This document shows positions 32,296 to 64,000 of a stretch of DNA of 64,000 nt, in pieces. The DNA is from a virus, in the IMG/VR virus record IMGVR_UViG_3300035001_000008, positions 32,001 to 96,000 of that record, one strand, 5' to 3'. Position 1 is the first letter of the stretch, and each line of letters starts with the position of its first letter. The notes below the pieces were generated by a model. It saw only the letters and a program-made list of their open reading frames with translations, was not told the origin of the DNA and ran no database searches. Both the position numbers and the translations under genes were made by a program.

Positions 32296-35200
32296 TTAAT
32301 TAGATCTTCCTAGAGCAATTAATAATTGATAGACAATTGAGTTAAACGTAAGCATTTCATCGTTTGTATATGCCTCAGTTATTGCTGAAAAACCTATGTT
32401 TCTATTGGTATGCCCTTCAGCAGTAGAACCCCGCTTAAATCCTGACAACAAATACATACCATTTTCAATAGCCCCTGTAGCCGCTGTCCCTAATGTTCCA
32501 GCCGGTGAGCCGTTAACGTAGTATTGTGCCTGTCTAGAGGCTCCTGCCATGACACTAAGCAAACCTACAGACGACGTTGGGCCTACTGCCCCAGCCGTAG
32601 ATGATCCGCCGATCCGGCCTGTCTCTCTAGTGCCGTTGTAGGCAATGCCTGTATATTGAGTAGCCACACTATCCCAATAGCCCATTAGCCATCGAGTACC
32701 GGCTAAAGATTCAGTCTGTGATGTCCATGCGTGTAGTGCTGCGTTTGTAGGTGTAACCCTAGAGCTTGGGTTTATTCCTGTATTAATTGAACGTGAGCCG
32801 TTGCCTTGCATACCGCCCACTTTTGTATAACCCGCCGTATCAGATTGGGTCATTACACCAACACTTTCTGTTAAATCAGTAGGGCTACGCAAGATTCTAC
32901 GCATAGCGTGAGCTTGATTCTCACCCATTAATGGCATTAACGCCCAAACTCTAGACCAAAGACCATTAGACTTCATAGTTGAAACAAAATTATCTAATGC
33001 AAGCATGTCAGCACTTAATGGGGCTGTGCCAGTACTTGCTAGAGATGCTGAAAAATCAGCCGTGATTTGATTTGAATAAATTGAAGGCGTGATAATTAAT
33101 GTAGGTGGCTGCATATCCAAAGAACTGGCTAATGCAGCATAAGGCGGTTTAATTTGGACTGCAATACGTTGAATACTTCTGATAAACGTTTCAGTTCTAG
33201 AATAAAACTGAATCATCTCAGAAGATGTCAGCCCTTTAGTTACTGCCCCCCATTGCAGATTACGGTTTGTTGAATAGTTAGGAGTTAAAACAGATTGCCC
33301 TGACCTAAAAGTAGCTAATAGCCAAATACCTGAAGCCAAAGAAGATGTAAGCGTTGCTGAGCTAGCAGTACCTACCGGTAAACCGTTATGGTAAAACTGA
33401 GAATTGCGAGTACCGCTATTTACCACAGATAACATGCCCGTTAATGTGGTATTGGCTCTGGCTGTATTATTTGCAGTAAACGCATTGCCGCCTAAACTAC
33501 CTGCGTCAGTTGTGGATGTGTTTAACCTGCCAATAACAGTATGTTGGTCAGAAGATGAGTTCATGCCGCCCATCAGCGTTCTAACGCCTGAAGCCGTTTC
33601 GATTTGCGATGTCCATACATGAAGCCCTACATCGTTAGCAGCTTGCGACGATAGACTTAACCGTGCGGCTAGCGCTCTTAATTCAGACGCTACACCTTGC
33701 ACACCGTTTTTACGTGAGTATCCTGACTCCGGTATGTTGTAGTTACTCATCTCTGAGAGTATTGCAAACGTACCTGGTCTATAGTCTAAAGCTTTCATTG
33801 CGGTTTCAAGATTACCGCCGATCAAAGGGAATAATTGAAATACTTTAGACCTTATACCATCAGTTTCTAAAGCTTTTAAGTAAGTATCTAAAGCTTGATA
33901 ATCTTCCTCAACTACAACACCCTTTGAGGCACTGTTAATATATTTAAGGTCTTCTACTAATGGGTCTGTTGTTGGTTCTGTACCTACATAGGGATAAGCC
34001 GATAACGCAGAACACCTAACGCCTAAACCCCTTGAGTTGAAATAGCTTCTAGGTAAAATTCTTTTAGTGTCTGTGCGTGTTTCAGATAAAACGTTTGTGT
34101 AAAGGCGAGTTGTACTAGACCCTGCTAATGAAAATACAGCAGAGAAATCACTATCAACTATAATAAATCCGGCTTCAATATTACGTGCAGCAACTTCAGT
34201 AGTTGTAAAATCTTCAATTGGATACAGAAACGTACCTAGCATTTCTGTTTTACCACCGTTTATTGTTCTAACGGCTTCCCATCCACCTTCGGTTTTGAAC
34301 CCTAAACTCCACAATTCTCCGCCATCGTTGAGAATCATGTTGGTATACTCAATATTCAATGACCGAGCAAAATACTTACCACCAGGTTTTACTTGGAGCG
34401 GGTAAACTGCCGATTCAAAACTTGCTGGGCTACAAAGAACGTCATCAATAAAGATTGGCCCTGCAATAGCTGTATTTGTAATCGCAATATAAGATCCTAG
34501 TCGGCAGTTTTTAATTACCAAAGGTCTAGGTGAATCATGCAGAATACTAATCTGAGTAAAGTTAGTTGCTGCACTAGCTCTAGCAGATAAATCTAAAGCG
34601 TCTAGCGTTAAAGGGTCGGTAGTGTCGCCTGTTGTTCTGATTATGGGTTTTGAGTTAGCTGACCAAAGCGTTCCTTTAGTTGTTAGAGTTACCTGATTTC
34701 CTACAATGCGTTTAACTGAAGGTGGAATAACCCAAGTGTCGCTAGTTGCATAGCTAGCCCGCTGAAAATATAGAATAGGTCTGCCTGATGCAGCGGCAGC
34801 ATTAAGTCCCGTGATACTGTCTAAAGGGTCTGTTAAAAATACTGACGTAGGCTGAGCACCATAAGTTACTACGTTGGCCCAATCATCTAAATTAGTACTG
34901 TTAAATACGGGTGGTGAACTTTGAATAGGAAGTTTTAAGCTTCCTGGTGGTGAATTAAACGCTCTATAAACTGAACTACTATACTCATCAATAGTCCCTG
35001 GAATAGTGCGGCCATTGCCAAGGTCTACAGTCGAACCATACCCACTAGATGTTACATTTCTCAGATATAAACTAACGCTTACCCCAACAATGGCAGAAGT
35101 ACTAGCAGAACCTCCGTTAAGGGTGCCACCAATTAAAATAATACTTCCTGTGTTTGTGCCGCCACTGACCGTTAAAGCAGGCGCTAAAATAGCAGGCACT

Positions 35201-36486
35201 TGATTGGTAGATACTAGGTTTTCAATTGAAACCATATTATCTTCAAGATAAAAACCCGCCACAGTTTGATTAGTGAGGATTAGGTTTACATAGGTTAGAG
35301 AATAAAAAGCTTGTCTTATCCTAAAACCGTATTGAAAACCATTAATCGTAATATCTTTATTTAGGTGCGGCCCATCAGATCTATTACCATGAATGCCTAC
35401 ATATCCGTTACCCGTCACGGTAACTCTCTCAATGCAACCCCAGTTATGCGAAGTAAAGTCTAAGGCTACTGCACCGGGGTTATTTCCGGTATCAATCACC
35501 ATATCCATGCAGCGCATACCGAAGGCAGTATTACCACTACCCGTTGGGTTAACGGTTGTGCTTTGATTCTCAGAACCTCCAAGAATCATAAATGCTTTAG
35601 GATTTCCAGGATCATTAAACCCGATAGCATTATCAACTAATTTAAGAGTAGTTGTTTCCCTTGAATCTCCTTGAACTGTCCATCTAGCAAACCAATTATT
35701 ATTTGATGGATTTACAGTACGGATAGTATCGTTAAAGTACCAAGTCCCTGCCGGGAAGATAATAGAACGGTTAGACCCTGGCTGAGTTTGGCACAATAAA
35801 TTCCATACATCAGAGTTAGTCTGAGCAGATGCAGGGTCATTAGGGACACCACCATTAGTTTGAAAGTTAATTAACCCGCTATCTGAAGGTCTACCGGATA
35901 GAAATGTAATTGCAGGCGGTTCAGGCGGGGTAGGTTCAACAATAGTAACTTCAATAGCACCCGCAATGTCAGCCCAAGCACTAATATTTAAGTCAGTTCT
36001 AGCCCTGATTCGTGCTTTATAAAAACCTTCAGTACTTACCGTTGATGTATACGTTAAAAGGTTTGAAGCTAACTTTATAGGATTGCCTGTATAGTTATCA
36101 GCGTTAGGCGCTATTTGTAATTCGTAATACCTTACAATCGTGCTACTAGGCGCTTGCCAAGTTAGTTTTAATTGTAAATTACCTAAATTAGTTCCTTCTA
36201 ATAGAAAAGGTTGATTGACCGTATTACCAAAGCTAATTGAAGATGCACTAGGTACATCAATCGCTACTGTCCCTGTTTGCAACCTATAGCAACGATTAGT
36301 TTCAAGTGTTAAAAGGCTATTTAATGTTGCTGAACGTCCTGCTTTCCAAGATAGCCAAAGTGATTGATCAACCGTATCTACAGCATGGATTATTGCACCT
36401 CCAACATTAAACACACTACCCGTTAGATTTGTTTGGGCACCTGTCCATGCAAAGAATACTGTTTTGTTAGGAGCTACAATTGGCAT
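32296..36486 (-). CDS. Tailspike / receptor-binding protein: FN3 domain, pectate-lyase-3-like beta-helix and two C-terminal repeats
   Basis: FN3 (LTWQAP...YELQ...YKARIRA), beta-helix starts (IIFPAGTWY; NVVTYGA...ILYF...SY) and a duplicated C-terminal domain of about 240 aa. Confidence 0.8.
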   Translation of the reverse strand: MPIVAPNKTVFFAWTGAQTNLTGSVFNVGGAIIHAVDTVDQSLWLSWKAGRSATLNSLLTLETNRCYRLQTGTVAIDVPSASSISFGNTVNQPFLLEGTNLGNLQLKLTWQAPSSTIVRYYELQIAPNADNYTGNPIKLASNLLTYTSTVSTEGFYKARIRARTDLNISAWADIAGAIEVTIVEPTPPEPPAITFLSGRPSDSGLINFQTNGGVPNDPASAQTNSDVWNLLCQTQPGSNRSIIFPAGTWYFNDTIRTVNPSNNNWFARWTVQGDSRETTTLKLVDNAIGFNDPGNPKAFMILGGSENQSTTVNPTGSGNTAFGMRCMDMVIDTGNNPGAVALDFTSHNWGCIERVTVTGNGYVGIHGNRSDGPHLNKDITINGFQYGFRIRQAFYSLTYVNLILTNQTVAGFYLEDNMVSIENLVSTNQVPAILAPALTVSGGTNTGSIILIGGTLNGGSASTSAIVGVSVSLYLRNVTSSGYGSTVDLGNGRTIPGTIDEYSSSVYRAFNSPPGSLKLPIQSSPPVFNSTNLDDWANVVTYGAQPTSVFLTDPLDSITGLNAAAASGRPILYFQRASYATSDTWVIPPSVKRIVGNQVTLTTKGTLWSANSKPIIRTTGDTTDPLTLDALDLSARASAATNFTQISILHDSPRPLVIKNCRLGSYIAITNTAIAGPIFIDDVLCSPASFESAVYPLQVKPGGKYFARSLNIEYTNMILNDGGELWSLGFKTEGGWEAVRTINGGKTEMLGTFLYPIEDFTTTEVAARNIEAGFIIVDSDFSAVFSLAGSSTTRLYTNVLSETRTDTKRILPRSYFNSRGLGVRCSALSAYPYVGTEPTTDPLVEDLKYINSASKGVVVEEDYQALDTYLKALETDGIRSKVFQLFPLIGGNLETAMKALDYRPGTFAILSEMSNYNIPESGYSRKNGVQGVASELRALAARLSLSSQAANDVGLHVWTSQIETASGVRTLMGGMNSSSDQHTVIGRLNTSTTDAGSLGGNAFTANNTARANTTLTGMLSVVNSGTRNSQFYHNGLPVGTASSATLTSSLASGIWLLATFRSGQSVLTPNYSTNRNLQWGAVTKGLTSSEMIQFYSRTETFIRSIQRIAVQIKPPYAALASSLDMQPPTLIITPSIYSNQITADFSASLASTGTAPLSADMLALDNFVSTMKSNGLWSRVWALMPLMGENQAHAMRRILRSPTDLTESVGVMTQSDTAGYTKVGGMQGNGSRSINTGINPSSRVTPTNAALHAWTSQTESLAGTRWLMGYWDSVATQYTGIAYNGTRETGRIGGSSTAGAVGPTSSVGLLSVMAGASRQAQYYVNGSPAGTLGTAATGAIENGMYLLSGFKRGSTAEGHTNRNIGFSAITEAYTNDEMLTFNSIVYQLLIALGRSN

Positions 36487-37462: not shown

Positions 37463-39049
37463 TTATACGGAAGATAGCCATCCTAGGGCGTTTACTTGAT
37501 CGAATTGCGATAGGTAAGTATGGCAACCGGATACAGCGTCACAAACATCAGAACCATCCTTTTTGGTTCCATCAAACGCATGTAAAAAAGCTAAAAACTG
37601 CGGTGTAAAATCAGCATTTAATACCTTAACTCTACCATTTGAAATAAATTCGCCGCTATCAGGGTCAGTAATAGGTTTGCAAGTTGCCGCAAAAGGCTTC
37701 ATTCTTGTTAGTTTATCGCCCATTGGTCTAATACCTTCTGCGTCTACACCAGATAGCCTACTTTTTAAGTTGGCCTCAACTTTCAAACCGCTACTACCCC
37801 CCTCCAATTCCCAACGTAAGGCGTAAGCTCTTCCTCTATTAAATTTACTGTCTTGATATCCTTGATTAACAATTAAATTATCCCCATCTGTAGGCGATAA
37901 TTGATCCCAAGTTGCATCAGCTATTAAATAATAGAACTCATTTGAATCATAGGGCATGATTAAATACATGAATACTGAAGCGGTATAACATGCAGAATCA
38001 TTTACTTCTTTGGCAGTAGCCGCCATGTCAAAAAATCTACAGCAATAGATCTGCCTAACACGGTTAAAGTCTGGTAATTCCTCAACTATCTCTATCCAAG
38101 TTTTATTAATAACAACGCCGGAAGCGTAGTTTACAAGCCAGTTGCCTCCGAGCAATCTTGCGGATTCGATTGCATCTTGTGCCATCAAATTAGCTTTATA
38201 ACATGGATCTTTTTCTAATAGAATTTTGTTGTCTGATAATTTAGAAGGGATAAAAGTAAATGACTTAGGCAGCATCTCAGGGTAAGCATGTAAAGCATCT
38301 TCTTTTGAATCAAACCATTTAATTTCATCGCTTATTCTCACAAACCAGCGGATAACTCCGCCCCTCTCATTGATAGGTAATCCTGTCTCAGGGTCAATCC
38401 ACCAGCCCAACAAGCCGCTACCCCAACCATTCTTACCAGTAATCAGCCAACTGTCTGCATCGGGGTTACAAGTGCCTCTGATGCAGGGTTTAATTCCTGA
38501 TGTTGAACGATTACGAGACATCAGATAGAAAAATTGACTTTCGGTGAAGTGTGCGATTTCATCCATGCCAATTCTAGTTATCTGAGCACCTTGCCAAGAA
38601 AACTTATCCTTCTCATGCTGTAGATGCCTAAAATCTATTCGAGAGCCTGAAGGGAATCGCCACTCCTGCCCATTTTGTTTTCCTACTCCACCTACTAATG
38701 GAAAAATCTTTTCCGCCTCATTTGCGAGGCCGCCGGGAGCGGTGATCTGCGGTGATGTGCGCCGGAAGATGACAGCAGAATATTCAGGATTTTCTACATA
38801 CTCTTCTTTTGCAAAGTCAAGCAATAATCCCCAGGTTTTTGCGCCGCCTGCTGCGCCCCCGAATATTATAATATCAGCATCACAATTAACAAATGTTGTT
38901 TGAGGGCCAGGTTGTGTAGCAGGCAATCCTTTAACGTTTTCGTCAATTTCAGATGCTTTCTTAGCTTTATTCCTAGATGAAACGACTAAGGGCAATTCTG
39001 AGATTGCCCTATCTAATGCATAAGATTTTACTTTCTTTTTAACAGGCAT
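37463..39049 (-). CDS. terL: Terminase large subunit
   Basis: Walker A FGGAAGGAKT, IFRRT, Walker B MDEIAHF, TCNP, nuclease DMAAT...D.CDA.SG. Confidence 0.96.
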   Translation of the reverse strand: MPVKKKVKSYALDRAISELPLVVSSRNKAKKASEIDENVKGLPATQPGPQTTFVNCDADIIIFGGAAGGAKTWGLLLDFAKEEYVENPEYSAVIFRRTSPQITAPGGLANEAEKIFPLVGGVGKQNGQEWRFPSGSRIDFRHLQHEKDKFSWQGAQITRIGMDEIAHFTESQFFYLMSRNRSTSGIKPCIRGTCNPDADSWLITGKNGWGSGLLGWWIDPETGLPINERGGVIRWFVRISDEIKWFDSKEDALHAYPEMLPKSFTFIPSKLSDNKILLEKDPCYKANLMAQDAIESARLLGGNWLVNYASGVVINKTWIEIVEELPDFNRVRQIYCCRFFDMAATAKEVNDSACYTASVFMYLIMPYDSNEFYYLIADATWDQLSPTDGDNLIVNQGYQDSKFNRGRAYALRWELEGGSSGLKVEANLKSRLSGVDAEGIRPMGDKLTRMKPFAATCKPITDPDSGEFISNGRVKVLNADFTPQFLAFLHAFDGTKKDGSDVCDAVSGCHTYLSQFDQVNALGWLSSV

Positions 39050-39953
39050 CCTTTAATTTTAGCTGCTTTGAATAAGAATGAATTCCTAAGCTTCTACGTT
39101 TATAATTTACGGCCATCGTTGTAACACCAATTAAAGCGGCTACAACATAATCAGGTTTTGTGCCCAATAAATCTATTTTGTCTTGCGTCCATGATGAATC
39201 TCTTAGAGATTTAATATCCAATAATCTTCGTAATTGCCCTACTACATTTTTAGTAATTCCTAATTCTTTAGCTAGCGTAGTATCTTCTACTTTACCAAGT
39301 TTATCTAATGCCCATTGCGGCCAACTATTGGGGTTAAAACCATTCGGCGTTGATAAGTCTTCATATTTAGGAATACCATTTTCAAGTCTTCTATTTTTTA
39401 TTAAAACAGTTGATACACCCGCTTGCCTAGCCAGCTCAGCATCATGCTCCTTACCCAACATATCCATTATGCTTTTAGGCAATTCTTTATAGTTAGCCTC
39501 TAAAACATTTTGGTATGCTTCAAGCCGCATCTTTTTACCCTTCTTAGGGCTAGGTCTTCCCGTAAGCGCTTTTGATATCTTTTTCCTTGTCTCTTCTGAA
39601 TAAACTCTATTTAATGTACCCTCGCCGCCATCTGTGAGGTTAGTTAATGGATACCCCATGTCTCTATAGGTCTTAATCCAGTATATTTCCCTTTCTTGCC
39701 AAGAATCCCCAAGTGCTACCGTTTCAATAGGCTTAATAGCAGGCTTAACCCCTTCATTCTCAAGCTTACGAAACCATCTGCTTTTATGCCAATGATGTCT
39801 AGCTGGTTGCCTAGATTCTGCTATATGCGTATTAAGCCTACGAATTAACGCTACTTCAGACTTGCCTACATATCTAGGCGTTTGCTTTTCATCTCTAGGG
39901 TCATATAAAACATAAATGACCACATCCTTAGATTTACGTGTTACCTTATTCAT
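39039..39953 (-). CDS. Free-standing GIY-YIG homing endonuclease with NUMOD3 and three HTH-like repeats
   Basis: IYVLYDPR...RYVGKS...R...H, ERE.YWI, NLTDGGEG, SEETRKKISKA, and repeats of the form LLG..PD..A..LG. Confidence 0.9.
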   Translation of the reverse strand: MNKVTRKSKDVVIYVLYDPRDEKQTPRYVGKSEVALIRRLNTHIAESRQPARHHWHKSRWFRKLENEGVKPAIKPIETVALGDSWQEREIYWIKTYRDMGYPLTNLTDGGEGTLNRVYSEETRKKISKALTGRPSPKKGKKMRLEAYQNVLEANYKELPKSIMDMLGKEHDAELARQAGVSTVLIKNRRLENGIPKYEDLSTPNGFNPNSWPQWALDKLGKVEDTTLAKELGITKNVVGQLRRLLDIKSLRDSSWTQDKIDLLGTKPDYVVAALIGVTTMAVNYKRRSLGIHSYSKQLKLKDAC

Positions 39954-40141: not shown

Positions 40142-40873
40142 GTGTCAGCTATTTATGTAGATGCATCGTATAAAAAAGGAGAAAAGCATGCAGGTGTAGG
40201 TGTTTACAACAGTGATACAGGTTTAGCTATTGGCAGAAGAATAGAAGCTGTTGTTAGCAGATATTGGCAAAGGATCACACTGCATGCTGAGCTTCACGCT
40301 ATAGGAGTTGCCGCCTTAATGGAAGGCGTTACTCACATAATCACAGACAGTAAAGATGCTGTAGAACTGTATAAAGGGTTAAAGGAAATACCTGAAGGTG
40401 TGCGTTTAACCTCGTTGCCTGATGGTTGTGAGTTGACATGGATACCCAGAGAGCAGAACCTCATAGCTGACTGGATGGCTAAAGCTCCTATGGATATAGA
40501 ACTACAACTGGCCCCTAACTTAGTTGATTTACCGACCCCTGAGCCTGCTGTAGTAGAACTTGCCCTTGATTTAGTAGAAGCTAAAAGACAAAAATGGATA
40601 GGCAATCTAAAATATACTCAGTTTTTAGATAGCGCTACTATTGAGTCAGTTAGGCAAGCTGACAGTTATATGCTTACAAGACTTATTGATGACGCTAAGT
40701 CTCAAGACAAATGGATTAAAGTAAATCAGGAATTAAAGACTAACATTAAAAAACTTAGACAGACTCAACAAGAATGGCACAACAAATATCAAAAACTAAA
40801 TAGTGAGTATTCTCGATTGACAAGAGAACTAGAATCACTTAAACAAGAATATGGCATAGATTCAGATGGCTAA
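40142..40873 (+). CDS. RNase H-like (RVT_3) domain protein with a C-terminal coiled coil
   Basis: YVDAS..G....GVG, AELHAI, ITDSK, WIPREQNLIAD. Confidence 0.85.
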   Translation: MSAIYVDASYKKGEKHAGVGVYNSDTGLAIGRRIEAVVSRYWQRITLHAELHAIGVAALMEGVTHIITDSKDAVELYKGLKEIPEGVRLTSLPDGCELTWIPREQNLIADWMAKAPMDIELQLAPNLVDLPTPEPAVVELALDLVEAKRQKWIGNLKYTQFLDSATIESVRQADSYMLTRLIDDAKSQDKWIKVNQELKTNIKKLRQTQQEWHNKYQKLNSEYSRLTRELESLKQEYGIDSDG

Positions 40874-41025: not shown

Positions 41026-41919
41026 ATGGCTAAGCTTGAAGACGTAATTAAGGCTCATGGTGGCGGTAAGCAATCCGGTAAGTTTGCAGTGCCTCTATCC
41101 ATGCTTCAGATTGATACCCAGCTAGATAAGCGTGACCGCACTACAGAACGCTATCAGATTCACTTTAATAATGTAAAAGCAGGCATCGTTACTCGTAAGG
41201 GCATTGAAGACACTATCGAGGTACATAGGGGTGTAGGTGACAATGCCGATACTCTGTATGTGGTTAATGGTCGTACTCGCACCTATGCGGCCCGTGAGGC
41301 TATCTCAGAAGGATTACTAGGGGACGTTACAGAAGATACGTTCCTAGTCCCTGTAGAGGTTAAACAAGGCAATGAGCTTGATTTCCTGGCTACTCAGTTT
41401 CGCACTCAGCAAGTTTTAACCCTCAGTGCTGCTGAGCAAGGCGCTATTGTGGCTGAGATGGTTCGCACTGCTGGAGGACTTGAAGATAAAGTAGCTGAAG
41501 CTTTAGGTAAGTCACTTAAACAAGTTCAAGACCTTCTCAAAGTCGATAGATTACTTCCTCAAGTAAAGGAAATGATTTCAAACGGTGACGTTGCTGTTAC
41601 CGTCGCTGTTGAACTAGCTGAGGAACATAGCGGTACTGAGCTAGTAGAAATCTTTAGCAAAGCTAAGGAAACTAAACAAGTTGAGCAGTCTGAAGATTCT
41701 GACAAACCTAAAAAAGGTAAAGGTAATCCTAAAAACAGACTAACTAAGCGTGACATTTACAATGCTAAATTCAATTCTCTGGCTGATTCAGAGCGTGAAT
41801 CACAAACTACCAGCATGTTGAATAACATCATCGCAGTACTTGAGGATCAAAAGCTTGACCCGTTCACCCTTAAGCAACTACACGACATCTCAGTTAAAGC
41901 ATTTGACAAAATGGATTAA
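41026..41919 (+). CDS. ParB/RepB/Spo0J N-terminal domain protein
   Basis: IEV...YVVNGRTRTYAA..A, LSAAEQG, VAEALGKS..V..LL.V..L...VK.MI..G. Confidence 0.8.
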   Translation: MAKLEDVIKAHGGGKQSGKFAVPLSMLQIDTQLDKRDRTTERYQIHFNNVKAGIVTRKGIEDTIEVHRGVGDNADTLYVVNGRTRTYAAREAISEGLLGDVTEDTFLVPVEVKQGNELDFLATQFRTQQVLTLSAAEQGAIVAEMVRTAGGLEDKVAEALGKSLKQVQDLLKVDRLLPQVKEMISNGDVAVTVAVELAEEHSGTELVEIFSKAKETKQVEQSEDSDKPKKGKGNPKNRLTKRDIYNAKFNSLADSERESQTTSMLNNIIAVLEDQKLDPFTLKQLHDISVKAFDKMD

Positions 41920-52353: not shown

Positions 52354-54201
52354 TTAATTAAGGTAGTTGAGGCATACTGAGGGAGTAGTTAAGGGATTGA
52401 TTATATGAGTGTGCAACGCAAAATTATTGAGACAATTGAAGAAAATGACCTAGAGTTAATTATTTACAGTGCCGTCACTTTTATTGGTAGTACTTTTGGG
52501 TATACCCTTAGTTGTAAGGCTTACACTATTAAAACTGAATCAGGTTTTGCTAGATTTGAAAGCGCTAAACAAGAAGGTCTATTTCATCTTAAAAAGAGTA
52601 TAGGAAAATAACTAAATGATTACCACTATTCACCCCGGTTTTACTTATCAGATTGTAGAAAACGGACACACTTTAACAGGTGAAGTTTTAGAGATTAATA
52701 GAACTGCTCAAAATACTTTTACCTATCGCGTTTTATGGTCTGATAATACCGAATCAATTGAAACATCGATTTCACCAAGGACAACTAAATGTACCAACTT
52801 AAATTAATCAACCTCAACACTGGCAATGTTGATAAATCTTTCACTCGCTCAACTAAAGTAGCAGCCAGTAAACTTTTGTTTAATTTAATCAGAAGCAATA
52901 GCCGACAGTTTGATGTAACTGTAACTAAGGATTAATTGGAATGTCTCATCAAATTACTACAGAAGATATTCTAGGGTATTACTCTAACTCAATTGCTAGT
53001 AGCCGTAAGGAAAGGAAGTCTTTAGCTATCGGGGTTACTCCTACCTGTGAGAAAGGGTTGATTTCTGAATATGTTTTACTGTCTCAGGGTGTAATTGTTC
53101 TTAGAACTAAGGATATTAATGAAGCGGTAAACGCTTACAATCAACTTTAATTTAAGGATGTTATGCCTGATAAACTTGATTTCAATTCACTAACTCAAAC
53201 TCAAATTGACTGCCTATGTGCAATTGCTTTTGGTGGTTCTCAAGTATGGCCTAAGCAAACCTTAAACTTCTTAGTTGATAAAGGTCTGATTGAACATCAC
53301 CCTATTAGAGATGGTGTCTTTACTACTCATACTTACGAAATGCCTAGTCACGTTCACATTCAATTTTGTGAATGGTGTTCTGATACTTATACTGAGGGAG
53401 AATGATGAAGCTGAATGTTAAACCTAAAATAATACTCAACGTAAAACCTAAGATGAAAAATGAAGTGATTATTTCATATTGGAATGAAGACATTATCAAA
53501 GTAGAGTGGTTGACAAAAATAGGGCAAGACTATATTAAAAAAGTTGTGGCCGATAACTCAGACATATTACTTCCTACAAGTCTTGTTTCTTCTGATGCAA
53601 ACGTTTGCTGTTTTGGTATTTCTAAAGACTACTACTTAGAAGAGGTAGTTCAAGCCATAGAACTTCAGGCACCGGATGATGTGACCGTTATTTATAACAA
53701 AGGGAATTAACTAAAATGTCTGTAAAAGAAACTGCTGACAAAATTAAATCTAAGTATGGTTCAAAATCAAATATGCCTAGCTATGCTCAGGTATTGAGTG
53801 AACTTAAAATAGGTTTAGGTGAATACCTGTTAGCTGTTGAATGGTTAGGCTGGGATTAACTTCACAAAACAACCGCTTAAGTTTACGTCAACTTTATTTA
53901 ATGTTAGATATACTTTAGAAGTACTGAAGGAGAAAGGAATTATGAGTTCTAGTCTTGAGTCAAGTCTAAAACCCAACGCTCCAGCTAATTCAAGGTTTTT
54001 AACTAATACCGAACACCAAACTTTAGAAGATTACTTGGCCGCTGTTTCAGATCATGACATTGTTAATGAAATATTCCGTAGTAAGCCTGAAGAATTGATT
54101 ATGTTAGACGAAGCATACTCTCTAAAAGGAACTTTAATACCTGGACATAAAGCTGTGTTTAGACGGTTTGTTTAATTAACCCATCTAACCCTAAACACTT
54201 C

Positions 54202-54273
54202 ACCTCTAGCCTAAAAACTAGGGGTTTTTCTTTACCTTAACTTTATCTAATGCTAGACGACAAGCTATATAAT
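54202..54273 (+). promoter_or_regulatory. Terminator-operator-class B promoter junction
   Basis: ACCTCTAG-CCTAAAAA-CTAGGGGTTTTT, then AACTTTATCTAATGCTAGAC, with TATAAT 17 nt after ATCTAA. Confidence 0.65.
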
Positions 54274-55621
54274 AGTCGTATAGCAAGCAGGACAGGGAAA
54301 TGAAAACAGCTTACGCATCCTTTAACCATAACGCTACTCATTCAGATGAGTTTTTAGTTACTGAAGCTTATATGTCTGAACTGGGTAAGCAGTATGCCCT
54401 TGAAGGTAAGTCTTTACCTGTTAAAGTGAATCTACCAGGTAGACCCTTTCCCTTTCACATCAAGCGTTCTAGACACGAATGGGCCTGTGCTTTCACTGAT
54501 AGCTATTTTGCAACTAAAAAGGACTTAAGTAAATGAAATCTAAATTTGGTATTCACAATTACAACTTAAACGGTTTAGATTCACTTGAAATTTTAAGGCT
54601 TGCTGTATATCAGCAAAAGTTAGCTAATGATTACATTGCTAAGCTTGAATCTCAGTTAGATGAACTATTGGATAAGGATTAAATTAAATGCAAGTAACAT
54701 TTAAGCATGGTAATTCTCAAACTGTTTCAGAAATACCTGAATCTGATTGTGAGGATGTTACCCTTAATTTAATTAAAGATAAGGCTAGAGAAATTAAATT
54801 GAGTTGTGGTGTAAAAGTTAGTTGGGAAATTGTGAAATGACAAAGATTGTTTATGAAATATGGATACGCAATCAGAATAACCCAGATTGGCGCAAGATGG
54901 ATCAAACAAGAGATTCAATGCAGTCTGCCCTAAGTCTTTCTTCCATTATGGAAAAGAAAGGGTTTGAAGTAGATATACGTGAAGTGTCACTATGAAACAA
55001 CCAATCTACGTTGTCATATATGATCCTACTTTTCCAGGTGTGAATAGGCTTTACTTAAACGACTCTAACCAATGGGTACAATGCTTTAATGATGCTGCTA
55101 CATTCTATGATGGGGAATCAGCCAGTACCGCTAGGGATGCGCAAATAAGGACTATAAAAAATAACCCTAATCCAACTATCAAGAATAATATTGCTTCAAT
55201 TAAGGCTAGAATTTTTATTAAAGATGTAGCCGTTGAATCTTTTTAATTAAATCCCCTCACACTAACTTTATTAAATCAGAGCATGTCTTTACGTTAGCTT
55301 TGCCTATTGTTAAATAGAGTGAGAGATAATAGATACATACAGCAAGGACACTTAAAAATGAACATTCCTCAGCAGCTAACCAATTCAATCGAAACTTCTA
55401 ATAAAGTAAGAATTGGTAAGACTACCTACGATATTCTTTCAGTGTCTAACACCTTTGGTTTCCTAACCTTTACCATTCAGGCGCATAAGCGCAATCAAAC
55501 TAAATCTTTAATGCAGCAAGATGCTTCTTTTGTTTTAATGACCGACGGCAAACGCTCAACAATGCCTAAGTTTGTAACCCCTGAGTTTATCTAACTTTAA
55601 GCGCCCTAAGGCGCAATTAAT

Positions 55622-55650
55622 AAACCCCTCTAGATAACTGGAGGGGTTTT
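55622..55650. terminator. Probable bidirectional terminator between convergent ORFs
   Basis: AAACCCCTCTAG-ATAA-CTGGAGGGGTTTT. Confidence 0.7.
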
Positions 55651-55932
55651 AAGTTTAAGGAATATCAATCATTTCAGCTACACCACGTAAGATAGCAGCA
55701 CACTTAAACCGCCATTCAGTTAAGCTGAAAATCCACATTAAACCGGCAGGGTCAGTACGCCACCATTCATCTTGCACAGCTTTATAAAAATCAGCGATAA
55801 GCTGTTTATTTAACTCAGCTTCATTGCCTAATTGTTGCCAAACATTAGATTCATTTTGCATAGGTAATCCTTTAATTTATGGGCATAGCCTGTATAATGT
55901 CATATAATTATTATATAGCATTAAATACTTGA

Positions 55933-56787
55933 ATGAAGTATACGGAAGATGTGATTAAAGAGTTTTGTCAGGAGAATGGCTTAACCTTTAATGGGATTGT
56001 TTCAAAGCAAGGTACTAACCAACTTATTAGAAAAGTTGACGTAACATGCCATTGTGGGCACCGATACGACATAATGCCCACAATGCTTATAAAATCTAAA
56101 GTGTCGTGCAATAAGTGTAAATATATAAAAGTTAGAACGACAAGTGCTAGTGATATACAGCAATTAGCTGAGGATAGAGGGTATACATACGTAAAAGAGG
56201 TTAGTCTTAACCGCCGTAGATTTATAGACTTAGTTTGCCCATCTAAGCATGAAGTAACTCTTAGAGTTGATCATTTTGTGAGCGGTAGTGGTTGTGGATA
56301 TTGTAAAAAGAACGTCAAACATTCCTATGAGTTTGTTAGACAAACTATAGAGTCCGAGGATGGATACACGCTTCTATCAACCGAATATATTAATGAACAC
56401 ACACCCCTGTTAGTAGAGTGTCCCAAAGGACATACATGCCAACCTAACCTTTCAAATTGGGTAAAAGGTAATAGATGCTCTACTTGCTCTGGTGCAAATT
56501 TTACACTAGCCCCTGCGTCTGTTTATTACGTTAGGTTTGACACTAAATTGGGGCCGATGTATAAAATAGGTATCACCAGTCATAAAAACGCCGAAGATAG
56601 GTTTTACCGTGAAAATATACCTTTTAGAGTTCTATCGGAATCTAGGTATATGTCTAGAGAATTTGCATTGTTGGAAGAACGCAGTATCTTAAATAAATAC
56701 GAAAAATTTAGATATAAAGGAGAACCTTTACTCTTATCTGGCAGCACTGAACTATTTACAAAAGATGTATTAAATCTAGATGTCTAG
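55933..56787 (+). CDS. Homing endonuclease: three Zn-finger (CapR-like) repeats plus a C-terminal T5orf172-like GIY-YIG domain
   Basis: C.CGH...C..C, CP..H...GC..C, CP.GH...G.RC..C; VYYVRF...YKIGIT...RF...GSTELF. Confidence 0.85.
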   Translation: MKYTEDVIKEFCQENGLTFNGIVSKQGTNQLIRKVDVTCHCGHRYDIMPTMLIKSKVSCNKCKYIKVRTTSASDIQQLAEDRGYTYVKEVSLNRRRFIDLVCPSKHEVTLRVDHFVSGSGCGYCKKNVKHSYEFVRQTIESEDGYTLLSTEYINEHTPLLVECPKGHTCQPNLSNWVKGNRCSTCSGANFTLAPASVYYVRFDTKLGPMYKIGITSHKNAEDRFYRENIPFRVLSESRYMSREFALLEERSILNKYEKFRYKGEPLLLSGSTELFTKDVLNLDV

Positions 56788-56788
56788 A

Positions 56789-57283
56789 TTATTCTTTTTC
56801 GTCTAAACTCTGTAAGAGAGTATCAATACCCCAGGCATGATCCATTTTCTCTAAAGCTGAACTGCTTACCTTATCGTAAACCTCAATCAGTTTAAGCATT
56901 TCTTGGGGCTTAAGATCTTCTACATCAATAGTAGTAAGCCATTGCTTAGCGAGGGAGTGCATTGAGTCTGAAATCTCCCACAGGCTCTTACCAAGCTTGT
57001 AGGTACACTCTCTGATGTAATCTACTTCCTTAGCGTGTTCTACCTTTTTAAGATAGAGAATGGTAGCGTCTAAACCATCCTTAAATGCTGACAACCTACG
57101 CCATTTGACTAGCGTTTGCTGTGACATATTAATACGCTTAGCCACCTCTTTATCAGTAATCCCTGGAGTACTGGCTAAGTAAAAAATAGCGTGAATCTGC
57201 TTAGCATTAAGACCTTTACCATTCAAAAATGATAGGTCAGATGCTAAGTCAGTATTTTCTGCTAAATTTTGGTTTTGTGTCAT
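56789..57283 (-). CDS. Putative terminase small subunit (N-terminal HTH)
   Basis: LNAKQIHAIFYL...ITDKEVAKRINMSQQTLVKWRR..AF followed by helical oligomerisation-like segments. Confidence 0.5.
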   Translation of the reverse strand: MTQNQNLAENTDLASDLSFLNGKGLNAKQIHAIFYLASTPGITDKEVAKRINMSQQTLVKWRRLSAFKDGLDATILYLKKVEHAKEVDYIRECTYKLGKSLWEISDSMHSLAKQWLTTIDVEDLKPQEMLKLIEVYDKVSSSALEKMDHAWGIDTLLQSLDEKE

Positions 57284-59292
57284 TAGTTAAATTACTTTTG
57301 GGTAAATTTTACCCTTATCCTATTTCAATCTCACCGTCGTCATCATCAATGATGAATGTAGGCTCATCTATTTCTCTACCCTGTTGCAAAAGGTCTAATG
57401 AATCATTCCAGATACAGGTAGCTAAATCTAGTATAGCGCCTTCACTTAATCTAATTTTATTAGACTTAAGCCCTGCTTTTATCTGAGCAACAGTATCAAC
57501 CATCAGTTTAGTTTTGAACTGATGATTAATTAAAAATAAATCAGTTGGGTTTGATGGTGTCATTGTTTTATTATAGATTAAATAAAAAACCTCTGTTGTG
57601 ATCAGAGGTAGGGAGTTGATTTAATACATATCAAGAACTGTAATGTATCTGTCCTTTGATTTGTCATATATTTCAGCTCCTTCATCAAGTAGATCTCTTA
57701 GTCTACGAGGATGAATCGTTTCAACTTCCAGTGTTTGACCTTTAAGCTTAATTACAAACATTTTCAATCTCCTTTTATTTAAGTGACACAGCCAATTCAG
57801 GTACTATCTCAGTAATCTCAGTTACTCTACTGTCATATTCCTTTTGAAGCGCTTTAAGGCGCTTTGAGGTAGTTAACAAATTAAGTTGAGCTTGTAAGTC
57901 TTCAATCTGCTGAGTAACCGCATCAATACCAGCAGCATTACTCAATTGAATACGTTCAATCTCAGAATCAATATCTTGTTTAATAGAATCTAAATCTGAA
58001 TCAGTTTCAGGCGTAGGTTTAACGTTCTTAAGCCTGATAGTAACACTGCCACCATCCAAAGGAATTTTAGCTTTATCATTCTCAGCCTTAAAAGCTAAAG
58101 CTTCATCAAGTGCCAATTCTTTTTGAAACTTAAATTTAGATTCAAGTTCCTCTAATTGAGATTTGAGTGTAATTAACTGTTGTAAGTTTTCCATTTATTT
58201 CCCTAACTGCATTACTTTACTAGCAAACTGATTAGAGTCCATTGAACTATCTTTTTGAAATTCCCAGTTCAATGTAGAAAACAATTCTTTTTGATGTGGA
58301 GTTAGGCTTTTCTTAATAACTTCAATTACATAAGCAACACCACAATTTTCTTTAGCGGTAAAGCTGATAATTTCAACAGGGGCTACTCCACTAACAACAG
58401 AACCTAAAGGCATTTCACTTTTAACAACTACATCAGTCAGTAAGTGAGTAACGGGTTCCTTTTCACTGGATGCTACATGCTTAACTGATTCAGGGTTAGT
58501 GATTGGATTACCAGATTTAGCCCATGATGATGCATTGCCTTTTACGATGTAGTAACTATCCCCTAAAGGGGTAGCGTTATATCTAACAATGTAAGTATCC
58601 ATTTATTTAATTAGGTAGGGGATCTTGAGAGGTAAACCAGATTGGACTGTATCGATATTTATTTAGAAATAGATTAAGGCAACTTGAGTAAGCTTCATAG
58701 CTGATGTCGCGTTGATTAAAACGTACTCTCTGCCGATTACATTCAATTGCCGCTTTAAGTTCAGCAATCTTACATTTCAATTGGTCAGTACCTTTCAACT
58801 TACCAACCTCATCCTTACATTTTGAATGAGGAAAGTAATTAACTTCCTCAGCGTGTAGAGTATCGTTACCATGCTTGATTGTGATAGAGCCTGATAGCCT
58901 TACGTGAGGGCCAGGGGTAGCACTGGAGGTGTAACGGCCAGTATTAGGCCAAATAGCTTTGTTATCTTCTAGCAAGGACTCATACCATTGCAGGTATAGA
59001 CCTGCTTTCTCTTGGTTGTATCCTTTGATATTGAATACTTCGCGAAGGGGTCTATTAGTCGCTTTAGTGTGCATTACTTTAATAAGTTGATAGGGTAGTT
59101 TGTTCAGCTTTAGTTAAGGGTAGATATTTAAGAAACTCTCTACCAGCTTTCGTTTGCATCAAGTTAGTTTTAATTTGCTTTTGTTCAGCTAAAGGTAGCC
59201 GATAGTAGATGTATTGGACATCAACTACTGAACCTCGGTTATGGATTAAATTTAAGCAGTCTTGCATAGTCCTTTAATGTATCGTCTATTTA

Positions 59293-59351
59293 ATTGTATC
59301 TAATGATTGTCCAATGTGCAACAAAAAACCCTAAGTATTTTACTCAGGGTT
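59293..59351 (-). promoter_or_regulatory. Class A promoter for 59079..59267, preceded by a terminator hairpin
   Basis: Minus strand TTGCAC-N17-TACAAT (59321-59293); hairpin AACCCT..AGGGTT at 59327-59351. Confidence 0.6.
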
Positions 59352-61770
59352 AAAGACAAAGGATTTAATTTAAGTTGATTTAATCTTGGGTATCACTCTC
59401 TACATCGTTTTCATCAGAGGATTTAGAAAATAGAGAGACTACACCTCCAGCCCAAATACTTAGACTTAACAGGTCAATACTGTTACCTGCTTTCAAATCT
59501 AGAATCATTTGAATGAATAGGGCTACTAGAGCAATAGCCATTACACTACGGAGAATATACTTAAGTTCCATCCGATACCTTTTGGTTAGTTACTTCAAAA
59601 TTAACAGAATCAAAAGCATCTACATTTTCAATATACCTACCATCGGACATTCTGCGCATCCATAGTTGATTCATTACCCAGATGTAATCTGAATCAGTTT
59701 GCTTAGGCATTTTTCAAATCTACCTTAATTAATAGCATCCGTAGCCCATTTCGATAACGATTTCAGCTAAACGACCTTCACAATCTGCACAGTTTTCAAC
59801 ATTATCACTATCAATAGATGTCAAACATGGGCCTAAGTTTATATCCCTTAGATAACCACCTCCATTAAATCCATCTAAAATCATTACTTCAAAATCGCCA
59901 TCAATTTTATTTAAGCGTTCAATCAATTTAGACTTAAGCATTATTAAAAACTTCCCATATTTCAGTTTGACAAGGTTCAATCTCTATATCTAGCTCAGTC
60001 CCGGCAAAGGTTACTAATTTAAGTGATATTGGATTAATCAAAAACACTCCAGTTTGAGTAAATGCAACTAAAAGACCACCAGACCATTCACCTTGAATAA
60101 AAGCAGGATGTTTACCTGATTCAGTTAAAACATAGATGTCGGGTGGTCTAGGTAAACGCATACCTACAGGCTTTTAATTTGAGTAAGCATCGATTCAGCC
60201 ATGCAAAAAGCCATAGCGGCTAGAGCATCTGTTTGTGCCATAGGAGTAAGGCTAGTATCATATTTATGATTTGCTAGAAGAATCGTCATGCACTCAATAG
60301 CTAAATTGATATGTGCATCACTACCATAGCTGTAATCAGTTTTAGACATTTTTAATTTCCATACACATGCGCACATTCTAGCTTAACTCTGTCTAATATG
60401 CAACACATTCATTCAAGGGTTGTCGATAGGTATATCACGTTATATAATGAGACTCAATTAAATTAAAGGACTCAATGAAACTTCTACACTGTTCTAATTG
60501 CGGCGATATATTCAATTTAGATTTAACTAAAAAATCGTGTAGATGTGGTGAAACTTGGGGCTACTATCAAACTGATGGAGTTAAAGCCGTTGTGTCTGCT
60601 GGTAGGCATACAACGGCTATAGGGTTTACCAATCCTACTTTTCTCTATGCCCGTATAAATCGCCCCAAATCTGGTATGGGAGAACGGTTTACTGCTTTTG
60701 TAATGCCTGAGCACTGCGATAATATTTTCTATTCAAAAGGTGCGTAAGTTCATATAAAGCTTGGGTTTCTTTACCTTAGCTTTATATAATATTAGATAGG
60801 GTGCGTTATTATTTAAGGGTAGATAGAGGAAAGGTAAATGTTCACTAGTGAAACTGTTTCTATTATCTGTGAACTACTTAGTTCTGCTGTTAGCTGGTCT
60901 AACGTTATTCATGGTAGTACACGTAAGGTTGTTAAAGGTGTGATTGTCGATGAATCAGATGTAAAAACTGTTGTAGACCTAGTTGATTTTCAAGTTAGTC
61001 TAACCGACCTAGGGCATTCAGTTCTGATTACCGATAATCGTTGCCCTGACCCACTATAGCTTTTAAGGTGCGTCTACTTAAATAATTTGACTCATGAATA
61101 ATAAAGGAATTAAAAATGTTATCTCCTAACTATTACGCTGGCTGGAACTTCGCTATTTCTCAACTTTCAGTAGATAGAGTAAGCCGTAAGGCTTTTGTTA
61201 AAGGTTTATCAGACTCTATCCAAGTAGAAGAGTATTCAGCGCATGGCAGTGATTACTACAAAGGGTTATCAGATGCCGTAGCCACCTACCAGGCTAATCG
61301 AAAGATTCCCATTAAAGCTGAAATTAAAGTAGTTTCCTTTTTTAGTTAGATGGATACTCAGAAATTTAAGCAGCAACTATGGAATGCACTTAATTCAAAT
61401 TCAGAGTTAGCTTTTCAAATTAAACGATATTCTAGCTTTTACGCTAGAGGTCTTAAATGTAGAGCAATTGAATTTAGTCAAAGGTTTGTTTATCCTGAAG
61501 TAGTATTCAACTGTCTTAAATGGTACGCATCCAATTTACTTGATAAAGATAGAGAGTTTGTTCAAGAATTAGGGGGTGATTTAGAACCTTTTATTCCTGG
61601 TTTCAGTAAGCAACATTATTGGAGAGTTTACAAAGATGAATTAAGTTCAATTCAATGGGGTAAGTTAAAGAAAGAATTTAATGTAATTGTTGGGCCGTAC
61701 ATTAAAGATTAAATCTCAATAAACTAAATAAGTTAAACTAAAGGGATGTATGTTTTAATACGTCCCTTTT

Positions 61771-62562
61771 ATGCTTTTTATTCACTCTACTAACCTTTTA
61801 ATTGAAATTCAATTAGGTTTAATGAGGGGGGATTTTGAGCTTTATTATCAGCCTGTGCTTAGCTTAAAAGAAGATAAAGTAATAGGCTTTGAAGCTTTAG
61901 TTAGATGGAATCACAATAATTTAGGATTACTTAGCCCTGATAAGTTCATCCCATTTATTGAAAAGTTTGATTGGCTAGCTTGTCAGTTTAGCCGATATGT
62001 ACTTAAAAAAGCTGTTAAACAGGCTAAGGAATGGAATTGTGATGAGAATTTATACATTGCCGTCAATATTCCTACTGCCCATATCGGTAAGACTGGTTTT
62101 GCTAAGTTTGTAGACGATATTCTATTTGAAAATGGGCTTAGCCATTCTGCTTTAGTTTTAGAAATTACTGAATCAAGTTATGGTGACTTTGCACCAATTA
62201 TTAGAAGCTTAGCCAACCTTAAAGACCTAGGAAGTAGACCACACCTAGACGACTTTTTAACCGGCTTTAGTTCATTTGAAAGATTGCTTAGACTTGAAAA
62301 GTATTTAAGTGCTGTTAAAATATCAGAGCTTTTTGCCGCTAATTTAGTTGATAATTCTGATATTGTTCATCTTCTAGTAGGTGTAGCCCATTCAAGGAAT
62401 TTGAAAGTAATTTCAGAAGGAATTGAATCTCCTGCGCAATTAGATGTGGTTAAGCGGTTAGGTGTAGATGCTGCTCAAGGTTGGTTATGGTGCCCCGCCC
62501 TACCAGCAATTAAAGCTAAACAATGGGCTGAGGCTTATAACATCAAATATCAAACCGTATAA
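61771..62562 (+). CDS. Stand-alone EAL-domain c-di-GMP phosphodiesterase
   Basis: LYYQP, GFEALVRW, AVNI, LEITES, LDDFLTGFSS, VKI, SEGIES, QGWL. Confidence 0.93.
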   Translation: MLFIHSTNLLIEIQLGLMRGDFELYYQPVLSLKEDKVIGFEALVRWNHNNLGLLSPDKFIPFIEKFDWLACQFSRYVLKKAVKQAKEWNCDENLYIAVNIPTAHIGKTGFAKFVDDILFENGLSHSALVLEITESSYGDFAPIIRSLANLKDLGSRPHLDDFLTGFSSFERLLRLEKYLSAVKISELFAANLVDNSDIVHLLVGVAHSRNLKVISEGIESPAQLDVVKRLGVDAAQGWLWCPALPAIKAKQWAEAYNIKYQTV

Positions 62563-62782
62563 ATCGCTACAATTTAGTTATCCTTTTAATTAATAAAAAT
62601 GAAACTAAAGCGGCGAGGTGTTGAGTATCAATTTAAATTAGTTGAGCTTAAAACTACGGTTGACGATAAGGCTAGAATGCTTGAGAGTGAAGCACATCAA
62701 GCCGACAGGCGCAATGCTGAGACTTTGAGAGTATTGGTAATGCGTTGATTATCTTCATAGATGTACGGTTGGTCTTTATATT

Positions 62783-62817
62783 ACCTTTACCTAATGCTAC
62801 TCTCTAGCGTATATAAT
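62783..62817 (+). promoter_or_regulatory. Class B promoter of 62845..63015
   Basis: ACCTTTACCTAA-N17-TATAAT. Confidence 0.6.
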
Positions 62818-63034
62818 TTGAATATACGCAGAGGAATTAAACAAATGACCATCAACGATATCGCAGTAGGTGACACGGTTACTCTAGCCTCTGGCGAAAC
62901 TGCCAAAGTAAAAGATATTCAGTTTCTTAAAGTGTTTATTCAGAAAGTCAAGTTTGGCCCTGTTACATCCCTAAATGTGAATATTAAAGATCAAACTATT
63001 CAAGGTCTAGCCTAAAAATAAAACAAGCTAAAGT

Positions 63035-63062
63035 AAACCCCTAAGATGTCTTAGGGGTTTTT
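63035..63062. terminator. Bidirectional terminator (repeated family)
   Basis: AAACCCCTAAGA-TG-TCTTAGGGGTTTTT. Confidence 0.75.
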
Positions 63063-63071
63063 AGTGTGTAT

Positions 63072-63344
63072 CTAAGCAGCTTCATTAATTAATCGTTCTC
63101 TCAGTTCTTTAGCCATACCCATAAAAGATTCTGTATCAGATCCTAGCGTTTTACAGTGATTGTCAAAATCGTTAGGTGTTGCTGTAGATTTAACTTTATT
63201 AATACACCCAGGACGTTTAGCGTATACACAACATTTAGAATAAAAGGCTTCAGATGTCATAGATTTAGCTAAACCTAGCTCAGCCATTCTAGTAATAAAT
63301 AAATTGTCTTGCTTAGTTACACCACAAGCACTACAAGATTCCAT
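63072..63344 (-). CDS. Cys-rich hypothetical protein
   Basis: CSACGV...CC.YA...GCIN; overlaps the nblA stop, so probably co-transcribed. Confidence 0.55.
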   Translation of the reverse strand: MESCSACGVTKQDNLFITRMAELGLAKSMTSEAFYSKCCVYAKRPGCINKVKSTATPNDFDNHCKTLGSDTESFMGMAKELRERLINEAA

Positions 63345-63522
63345 TAAAGCTACCCCAAGTTTCTTTTTTCATAACGTTAACGGTTACTTGGTCTTTGCAG
63401 AGCATTAGGTAATGTACTTTAAGCAACATTTCTTTAGCTTGAGCTTCATTCATCTTTTCAACGCTAATTTCAAGGTTACGCTGGATGAATTGCTTTTCTG
63501 GTGAAAGTTGAATTGGTTGCAT
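63331..63522 (-). CDS. nblA: Phycobilisome degradation adaptor NblA
   Basis: PIQLSPEKQF......V..MN..QAKEML.....M..KD......MK...WG matches the NblA pattern LS.EQ.F.....V..MS..QA...L...Y.QM..R......LLK..WG. Confidence 0.85.
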   Translation of the reverse strand: MQPIQLSPEKQFIQRNLEISVEKMNEAQAKEMLLKVHYLMLCKDQVTVNVMKKETWGSFNGIL

Positions 63523-63543
63523 AATAAATACCGTTAATAATAG

Positions 63544-63774
63544 TTACTGAAAACTTTCCTTATATTCTTCATCGTTAAGGGAATAAACATCTAAATCAGA
63601 TTCTTTAGATGGAAATGAGGGTTGCCCTTTATTTTTACCTCTAGTTTTCAATCTACAAGACTCCCCTTTAATCAACACGCCATTGTTTGTACTCTCAATA
63701 ATTCTGTGATACCAATCGTCGCTAAGATTAAACTTGGTACGCATATACAAATCTAGCTTAGTAGGTCTATCCAT
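63544..63774 (-). CDS. Hypothetical protein upstream of nblA
   Basis: Preceded by AAGGA RBS and a minus-strand TTGCAT-N18-TAGAAT promoter at 63827-63798. Confidence 0.6.
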   Translation of the reverse strand: MDRPTKLDLYMRTKFNLSDDWYHRIIESTNNGVLIKGESCRLKTRGKNKGQPSFPSKESDLDVYSLNDEEYKESFQ

Positions 63775-64000
63775 TTATTCCTTTAATAACTGCACTCATT
63801 CTATCTAATATTTATCTAATATGCAATGCTTTAGTTAAATCTAATAGTAGGGCTGCTTTCTTCGAGCATAACGCCTCTCTCTAAATTAAATCGATACTTA
63901 TCAAGGCTGAGTATGCACTTCCATAACTCACCTTGATACCCGTCAATCTCACCGCCTACTAGCACCTGGTAAGGCTTAAAGCCTCTCCAAGATGATTCGT

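Follow-up and report, generated by a model that had tools for sequence, protein, structure and literature searches.

Does a stand-alone EAL-domain gene that lies among phage genes encode a working phosphodiesterase (PDE) for c-di-GMP (cyclic dimeric guanosine monophosphate), and does it belong to the phage at all? This question is raised by a stretch of 64,000 nucleotides (positions 32,001 to 96,000 of IMG/VR virus record IMGVR_UViG_3300035001_000008; hereafter the window, to which all coordinates refer), in which an initial annotation, made from the letters of the sequence, had described the gene at 61771–62562 on the plus strand as a phage-encoded, stand-alone c-di-GMP PDE. The gene is located in a block of small accessory genes in a large temperate phage, or prophage, with a cyanobacterial host. 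Its product is predicted to be a c-di-GMP PDE whose dependence on metal or on dimerisation is altered and which may be attenuated or under different regulation; when expressed, it would lower host c-di-GMP. We give this reading a probability of about one half. The EAL enzyme family and c-di-GMP genes on mobile elements are known already. New is an EAL lineage that is very rare, has a remodelled region around loop 6 and the M2 metal site, and lies behind a terminator in a cyanobacterial prophage.

The EAL domain and its active site

The gene is an intact, ATG-started open reading frame (ORF) of 263 amino acids. PF00563 (EAL) was the single Pfam family detected in the protein (E = 2.1e-52, 178.3 bits against a cut-off of 31.3), and the match aligned residues 14–242 with profile positions 5–235 of 236. 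Since Pfam found the EAL domain alone over these residues, the protein is a bare EAL domain, preceded by a short helix at the N-terminus and followed by another helix at the C-terminus. No sensor or GGDEF domain was detected within the protein by Pfam, and tblastn searches with GGDEF-EAL proteins revealed no second EAL or GGDEF domain in the window, as they matched only the EAL part of 61771–62562; the sensor-less architecture proposed earlier is thereby confirmed. In the PHROGs collection two long families of unknown function were matched, only at their C-terminal EAL part. The N-terminus MLFI(H/N)S recurs in the two relatives that are about 70% identical, which supports ATG 61771 as the start. 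An internal start at Met18 was considered and rejected because of this conserved N-terminus.

The AlphaFold model (built from 61 sequences) reached a mean predicted local distance difference test (pLDDT) score of 94.1 and a predicted template modelling score of 0.91, with residues 131–140 and 161–170, the latter including loop 6, as its weakest internal blocks (pLDDT 82 each). The best Foldseek matches were active EAL PDEs throughout (Bd1971, MorA, BifA, MucR, and TBD1265; E = 1e-22, template modelling scores of 0.82–0.89). A phmmer search of PDB sequences returned MorA, PdeA, MucR, BifA, DosP, RocR, TBD1265, PA3825, and YahA with E = 9e-35 to 1e-22 and all signature motifs in register, and the best NCBIfam matches were the EAL parts of DibA, PdeR-type, GepA, and Tlr1612-type proteins. 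The c-di-GMP receptor LapD ranked far lower in both searches, with E = 6.5e-16 for LapD-type NCBIfam models against 3e-45 for PDE models, and E = 1.6e-14 for the LapD EAL domain in the PDB against 9e-35 for MorA.

The catalytic and metal-binding set is complete and comprises E41 of the EAL motif, R45, N99, E131 and E134 (ExxE), D160 and D161, K183, E216 and E219 (EGxE), and Q236. Every such residue named in the initial annotation is present and aligned with the EAL domains in the PDB and with the 117 nearest non-family homologues, whose alignment underlies the conservation counts given here. The residues at positions 41, 45, 131, 134, 160, 161, 183, 216, and 236 (E, R, E, E, D, D, K, E, and Q) are invariant in all 117, and Q27, N99, and E219 are each shared by 115 of them. 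Loop 6 reads DDFLTGFSS (160–168), and the KID motif is replaced by K183-I184-S185, just as had been described. The loop had further been called slightly altered; the alteration itself is borne out, but its extent was understated. Position 163, occupied by Leu, holds Gly in 117 of 117 homologues, and Ser185 stands where 114 of them have Asp and three have Ala. The following position, 186, is Glu here and mostly Arg or Lys in the homologues. The canonical loop-6 motif is DFG(T/A)GYSS (PMC2994820; papers are cited by identifier), and a main-chain-to-main-chain link joins the loop-6 Phe with the KID Asp (PMC2994820), so that the substitutions at 163 and 185 are spatial neighbours. Both deviations sit at the M2/loop-6 switch, regulatory as well as catalytic, that controls EAL activity.

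The protein shares its fold with the solved active PDEs MorA (4RNI/4RNJ), MucR (5M1T), PdeA/CC3396 (3U2E), TBD1265 (3N3T), BifA (8ARV), and Bd1971 (6HQ5). At identities of 26–34%, the classical catalytic and substrate-binding residues all align. The solved enzymes, which are mostly multi-domain sensors, have DDFGTG(Y/F)SS and K-I-D, whereas the phage protein, a bare domain, has DDFLTGFSS and K-I-S-E and additionally differs by a two-residue insertion before K183 and a three-residue deletion after N195-S196-D197. In its one-domain, sensor-less architecture it resembles PdeH (YhjH) of Escherichia coli, a stand-alone EAL PDE, and control would be expected at the level of expression; PdeH is not closely related to it, and the NCBIfam model NF008617 was matched weakly (E = 2e-5). 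Another isolated EAL domain of similar length is PA3825-EAL of Pseudomonas aeruginosa (5MF5, 5MFU), which serves as the standard of comparison for metal sites M1, M2, and M3 as well as for how the DDFGTG loop moves (PMC5301497). Judging from the canonical spacing, in which D161 + 22 is the Asp of K-I-D and E217 the Glu of AEGVE, Asp183 of PA3825 would correspond to Ser185 of the phage protein, in which moreover Phe162 is followed by Leu instead of Gly.

Compared with canonical class I EAL domains, the phage protein thus has the catalytic set but deviates in loop 6 and in the KID aspartate. Receptors of the FimX/LapD type have lost metal-binding or catalytic residues while keeping the pocket, whereas here the classical set is intact. 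Like the "class II" EAL domains, whose activity differs from case to case, the protein combines a complete catalytic set with a loop 6 that departs from the canonical form; domains whose signature residues deviate in part can still function and have been termed "functional class IIa and IIb" (PMC12900916). In the literature searched, the Gly-to-Leu and KID-to-KIS substitutions were found in no characterised protein.

Relatives and origin of the lineage

A word-indexed search of 5.8 billion protein clusters revealed two proteins, P0002 and P0003, encoded on short ENA contigs and 70–71% identical to the phage protein; all others were at most 41% identical. Both relatives keep DDFLTGFSS and VKISE, and since the variants L163 and S185 are thus conserved in three close members, they do not represent decay. 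An exhaustive hidden Markov model search of 1.84 billion representatives likewise yielded a single family cluster at 554 bits, with the next match at 208 bits. Among the top matches of this search were two short proteins on Logan contigs of 1–2 kb, P0125 and P0132, which are distant members of the same lineage. They share with the close family the two-residue insertion before K183, the three-residue deletion after NSD, and a residue other than Gly at position 163; their loops read DDTFYGFNG and DDFPQGFNS, and both retain K(L/I)D. The five proteins were joined in an IQ-TREE quick tree with a Shimodaira–Hasegawa-like approximate likelihood ratio support of 98. The branches are long, and for clade membership the shared indels therefore carry as much weight as the tree. 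No sixth member was found with a profile of the five.

Across this clade, whose members are about 38% identical, Q27, E41, R45, N99, E131, E134, D160, D161, G165, K183, E216, E219, and Q236 are invariant. Because the classical catalytic residues have persisted in all five proteins, the pattern speaks for selection on the chemistry or, at a minimum, on the metal–nucleotide site. In a protein without catalysis the loss of some of these residues would be expected, so the invariance favours retained catalysis. P0125 and P0132 start with a remnant of a C-terminal GGDEF motif (ADxALYKVK). Unless their gene calls are truncated, the clade probably descends from a GGDEF-EAL protein.

No donor lineage of the gene was visible in the genome and tree comparisons. 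None of 401 sampled cyanobacterial genomes contained a match at E ≤ 1e-42, and the best identity in the genome collection was 39% among the matches listed. Nodosilinea PCC 7104 carries 24 EAL proteins, which are multi-domain throughout and at most 37% identical to the phage protein. A phylogeny against host EAL domains had been proposed as a check; no close homologue turned up in the 401 genomes, and a FastTree tree that placed the protein next to REC-EAL proteins was set aside because of a long-branch warning.

In viral contigs no close relative was found either, with the single protein or with the family alignment, which gave three loci with 32–34% identity. The earlier suggestion that EAL genes are rare in phages held up in a survey of two collections. 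When 50,697 INPHARED records were searched by tblastn, 61 had an EAL match, and the best 40 of these 61 were mislabelled bacterial assemblies, unannotated contigs of a few kb, or Tn21-type Urf2. A record labelled "Cyanobacteria phage AS-1 contig_14" (DQ115821.1), a 1.67-kb GGDEF-EAL fragment of high GC content, was rejected as contaminating bacterial DNA that is almost certainly not from AS-1. In IMG/VR, 201 EAL loci were confirmed by a pattern scan that covered 2.9 million contigs. Of 83 loci examined, 75 encode multi-domain proteins and eight encode proteins of at most 330 amino acids, several of them at contig ends. Stand-alone viral EAL proteins are thus rare in INPHARED and IMG/VR.

Phage context and expression of the gene

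The window encodes a large terminase (TerL; 37463–39049), a portal protein (11016–12995), a helicase (18409–20127), and a helix-turn-helix or small-terminase-like protein (56789–57283), in addition to an exonuclease, an endolysin, and an Erf-type annealing protein. At 63331–63522 on the minus strand, 0.8 kb from the EAL stop codon, lies a gene for the phycobilisome degradation protein NblA (62–63 amino acids; PF04485, E = 3e-8, 34.4 bits against a cut-off of 25), the second host-physiology gene of the accessory block. Cyanophages are known to carry NblA, and its presence identifies the host as a cyanobacterium. With a GC content of 35.6% and a cosine of 0.917 between its codon usage and that of the pooled phage ORFs, the EAL gene resembles the other genes, whose range it does not leave in either respect (0.82–0.95 for the cosine). 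By location and composition it is a phage accessory gene, similar to a moron or an auxiliary metabolic gene, and the earlier description as phage-encoded stands.

That host DNA had been mis-joined to the contig, which had been raised as a possible refutation, is unlikely because phage genes surround the locus and a separately assembled Logan contig from the probable source run ("algae metagenome") covers 54000–64000 with zero differences, at a word depth of about 988. Three short pieces of the element (57357–57620, 60141–60291, and 60381–60531), all outside the EAL gene, recurred identically in a marine metagenome of another study, which points to the presence of the element, or of its lysogen, in other places in low numbers. 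The same marine metagenome (small share) also held an unrelated EAL fragment. A megablast search of 55000–64000 against INPHARED phages gave no match.

The EAL gene is part of a plus-strand block at 60475–63015. The best sigma-70-like promoter candidate of the block, TTGTCG-17-TATAAT at 60420–60448 (plus strand; a consensus match at 10 of 12 positions), could mark the start of a unit that runs into a hairpin and the EAL gene. Upstream of the latter are four small plus-strand ORFs of 90, 73, 77, and 120 amino acids (60475–61712), none of which matched a known family. They are followed by a terminator-like hairpin at 61740–61769 (plus strand; 12-bp stem, 6-nt loop, RNA folding energy of −18.3 kcal/mol, z = −3.7) that ends one base 5′ of the EAL ATG, so that the start codon lies inside its U-tract (UUUUAUGCUUUUU). 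This hairpin probably terminates the unit of four genes that precedes it and acts as a gate or attenuator for expression of the EAL gene. Between hairpin and AUG no promoter match passed the scan, and no Shine–Dalgarno sequence precedes the AUG. Most transcripts may accordingly stop at the start codon, so that the protein would be made only through read-through, antitermination, or perhaps a near-leaderless start; an mRNA of the last kind could, speculatively, arise from a weak TTTAAT located in the loop of the hairpin. Rfam models found no match at 59–64 kb, hence no c-di-GMP riboswitch. The initial annotation had proposed unregulated removal of c-di-GMP. This proposal presupposes a fully active enzyme and is not established given the replaced loop-6 Gly and KID Asp, and the terminator hairpin abutting the start codon argues against free expression.

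Downstream, an ORF of 49 amino acids without a family match (62599–62748, plus strand) starts 36 nt past the EAL stop codon; no terminator separates the two, which are possibly co-transcribed. A further ORF of 56 amino acids (62845–63015, plus strand) has a ribosome-binding site (AGAGGA) and an ACCTAA-N17-TATAAT box upstream at about 62789. The EAL plus-strand unit likely ends at a GC-rich hairpin between convergent genes (63035–63060).

Several other features characterise the element. The palindrome TCTAAYRYTAGA has 33 matches with at most one mismatch, both strands counted, compared with four expected, a number reached by none of 100 shuffles. Copies are located for instance at 5120, 25454, 54246, and 60785, the last being the nearest to the EAL gene and in the same plus-strand block; the palindrome has the appearance of an operator, or of a site associated with promoters, used throughout the element. 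Homing-endonuclease-like genes comprise one of the GIY-YIG type (9201–9980, plus strand), one directly downstream of TerL with an 11-nt overlap (39039–39953, minus strand), and one of the HNH type with a CapR domain (55933–56787, plus strand). A transposase of the insertion sequence type (15163–16356, plus strand; phrog_506, E = 6e-131) is located inside the phage and adjoins a ThyX-like thymidylate synthase gene (16753–17559, minus strand). The two tRNA genes of the window, tRNA-Arg(TCT) and tRNA-Met(CAT), abut in tandem at 13773–13921 (plus strand). A ParB-like gene (41026–41919) adjoins an ORF of 243 amino acids (40142–40873, plus strand) with a weak Pfam match to the RNase H-like RVT_3 (E = 2e-5). 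On the minus strand, a run of large ORFs (386, 502, 504, 212, and 1396 amino acids; 27074–36486) presumably encodes novel structural or tail proteins; the four searched, all but the 212-residue ORF, had no PHROG match, and the two tried with Pfam had no match there.

Function, alternatives, and meaning

If the protein acts as predicted, c-di-GMP would be bound in the standard EAL pocket and cleaved to pGpG by the usual metal-dependent mechanism. Catalysis would be kept, while L163, S185, and the Glu after S185 would change the metal dependence or the dimerisation-driven activation. The gene would be reached past its hairpin gate by read-through, antitermination, or a near-leaderless start, and the lowered c-di-GMP level would shift the host to dispersed, motile cells with active pili. 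In Synechocystis and Thermosynechococcus, high c-di-GMP increases flocculation, biofilm formation, and cellulose-dependent aggregation, inhibits motility by type IV pili, and changes the expression of minor-pilin operons, among them the one required for competence (PMC10124867); through ComFB/CdgR, cyclic dinucleotides are tied to DNA uptake as well as to pili (PMC12448109). Since high c-di-GMP promotes aggregation and inhibits pilus motility, dispersal and altered pilus function are the expected consequences of its removal.

A number of observations weigh against an active PDE of this kind. Among 283 EAL domains (the homologues together with 80 genome loci and the 83 IMG/VR loci), 277 have Gly at position 163, and Leu is confined to the three family members. 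Both loop-6 glycines position the loop through backbone hydrogen bonds to the loop-stabilising glutamate of ExxE (PMC2994820). Dimerisation moves the DDFGTG loop, which then builds the metal sites, and the M2 Mg2+ of PA3825-EAL is held by Asp161 together with Asp183, the KID aspartate (PMC5301497), which is Ser in the phage protein. In the usual scheme, an intact catalytic set combined with a deviating loop 6 defines a class whose activity cannot be predicted. Finally, the link to pili found no echo in the viral neighbourhoods, as no credible pilin-like ORF occurred within 6 kb of the 83 IMG/VR loci. The same deviations could be read to mean that the protein is a binder and not an enzyme, with the c-di-GMP pocket kept and hydrolysis very slow, serving as a sponge, receptor, or trigger protein that would titrate c-di-GMP or relay it to a partner. 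That G163L and D185S both fall on the loop-6/M2 switch, that Glu replaces R/K186, that the loop-6 block is the least confident part of the model core, and that binding-only EAL domains have been solved in LapD and FimX all lend this possibility some weight. Known receptor-type EAL domains have, however, lost catalytic residues, and FimX is without DDFGTG (PMC5301497), whereas here the classical set is invariant over a deep clade and active enzymes head both the sequence and the fold comparisons; we regard a pure binder as possible but doubtful. A retuning of the pocket or metal site to another cyclic or linear dinucleotide would fit the rarity and depth of the clade, the indels around loop 6 that its members have in common, a changed M2 ligand, and L, F, or P in place of Gly at 163, but the c-di-GMP contacts of solved complexes (Q27, E41, R45, N99, D160/161, E216, and Q236) are unchanged and no precedent was found in the literature searched, which makes an altered substrate quite improbable. 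A further idea takes the five-member clade as a virus-associated EAL lineage whose rebuilt loop-6/M2 region, without the first glycine, with the two-residue insertion and three-residue deletion, and with KIS-E in the phage family, would escape the dimerisation- and Mg2+-gated switch; the protein would then be a constitutive minimal PDE or a high-affinity c-di-GMP sponge that is released on terminator read-through. This scenario is speculative, and we consider it rather unlikely.

Two other explanations concern the role of the gene for the phage and not its chemistry. The initial annotation had suggested that the enzyme defeats a host cyclic-oligonucleotide-based antiphage signalling system (CBASS) of the STING type by destroying c-di-GMP or a related cyclic dinucleotide. 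General logic speaks for this idea, since phages degrade defence nucleotides, the protein has no sensor domain, and a divergent active site could fit an altered substrate. It nevertheless found no support, as PADLOC matched neither the gene nor its neighbours, an EAL anti-CBASS enzyme was not found in the literature searched, and the gene lies behind a terminator in an accessory block by NblA instead of an evident early operon; counter-defence is accordingly very improbable. Lower still is the chance that the gene has no phage function, being mis-joined host DNA or inert cargo drifting to loss. The contig that carries it is, at 255 kb, larger than the element, and the 83 EAL matches in IMG/VR are mostly multi-domain and host-like, many of them near contig ends. 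Against this stand the phage genes to the left and NblA with small phage-type ORFs to the right, the phage-like composition, the identical independent contig, the intact frame with conserved relatives, and the lack of a close homologue in the 401 cyanobacterial genomes. A c-di-GMP PDE with a modified metal or dimer dependence thus remains the preferred reading.

A virus-encoded diguanylate cyclase has been discussed (PMC7785012), and no paper describing or experimentally testing a phage EAL protein was found in the literature searched. The biological interest of such a gene stems from the fact that c-di-GMP sets the choice between attached or aggregated and motile life, in cyanobacteria largely via type IV pili, which also serve in DNA uptake (PMC10124867); in other bacteria type IV pili are phage receptors (PMC11461919). 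A prophage with its own sensor-less EAL protein could reset this lifestyle choice in the lysogen or during infection. For the EAL family, in which the enzyme type is otherwise ordinary, the value of the protein lies in its active-site variant. The clade is a natural experiment, in which the classical catalytic residues are all kept while the loop-6 glycine and the M2 ligand are replaced, and its activity would reveal how essential these two elements are.

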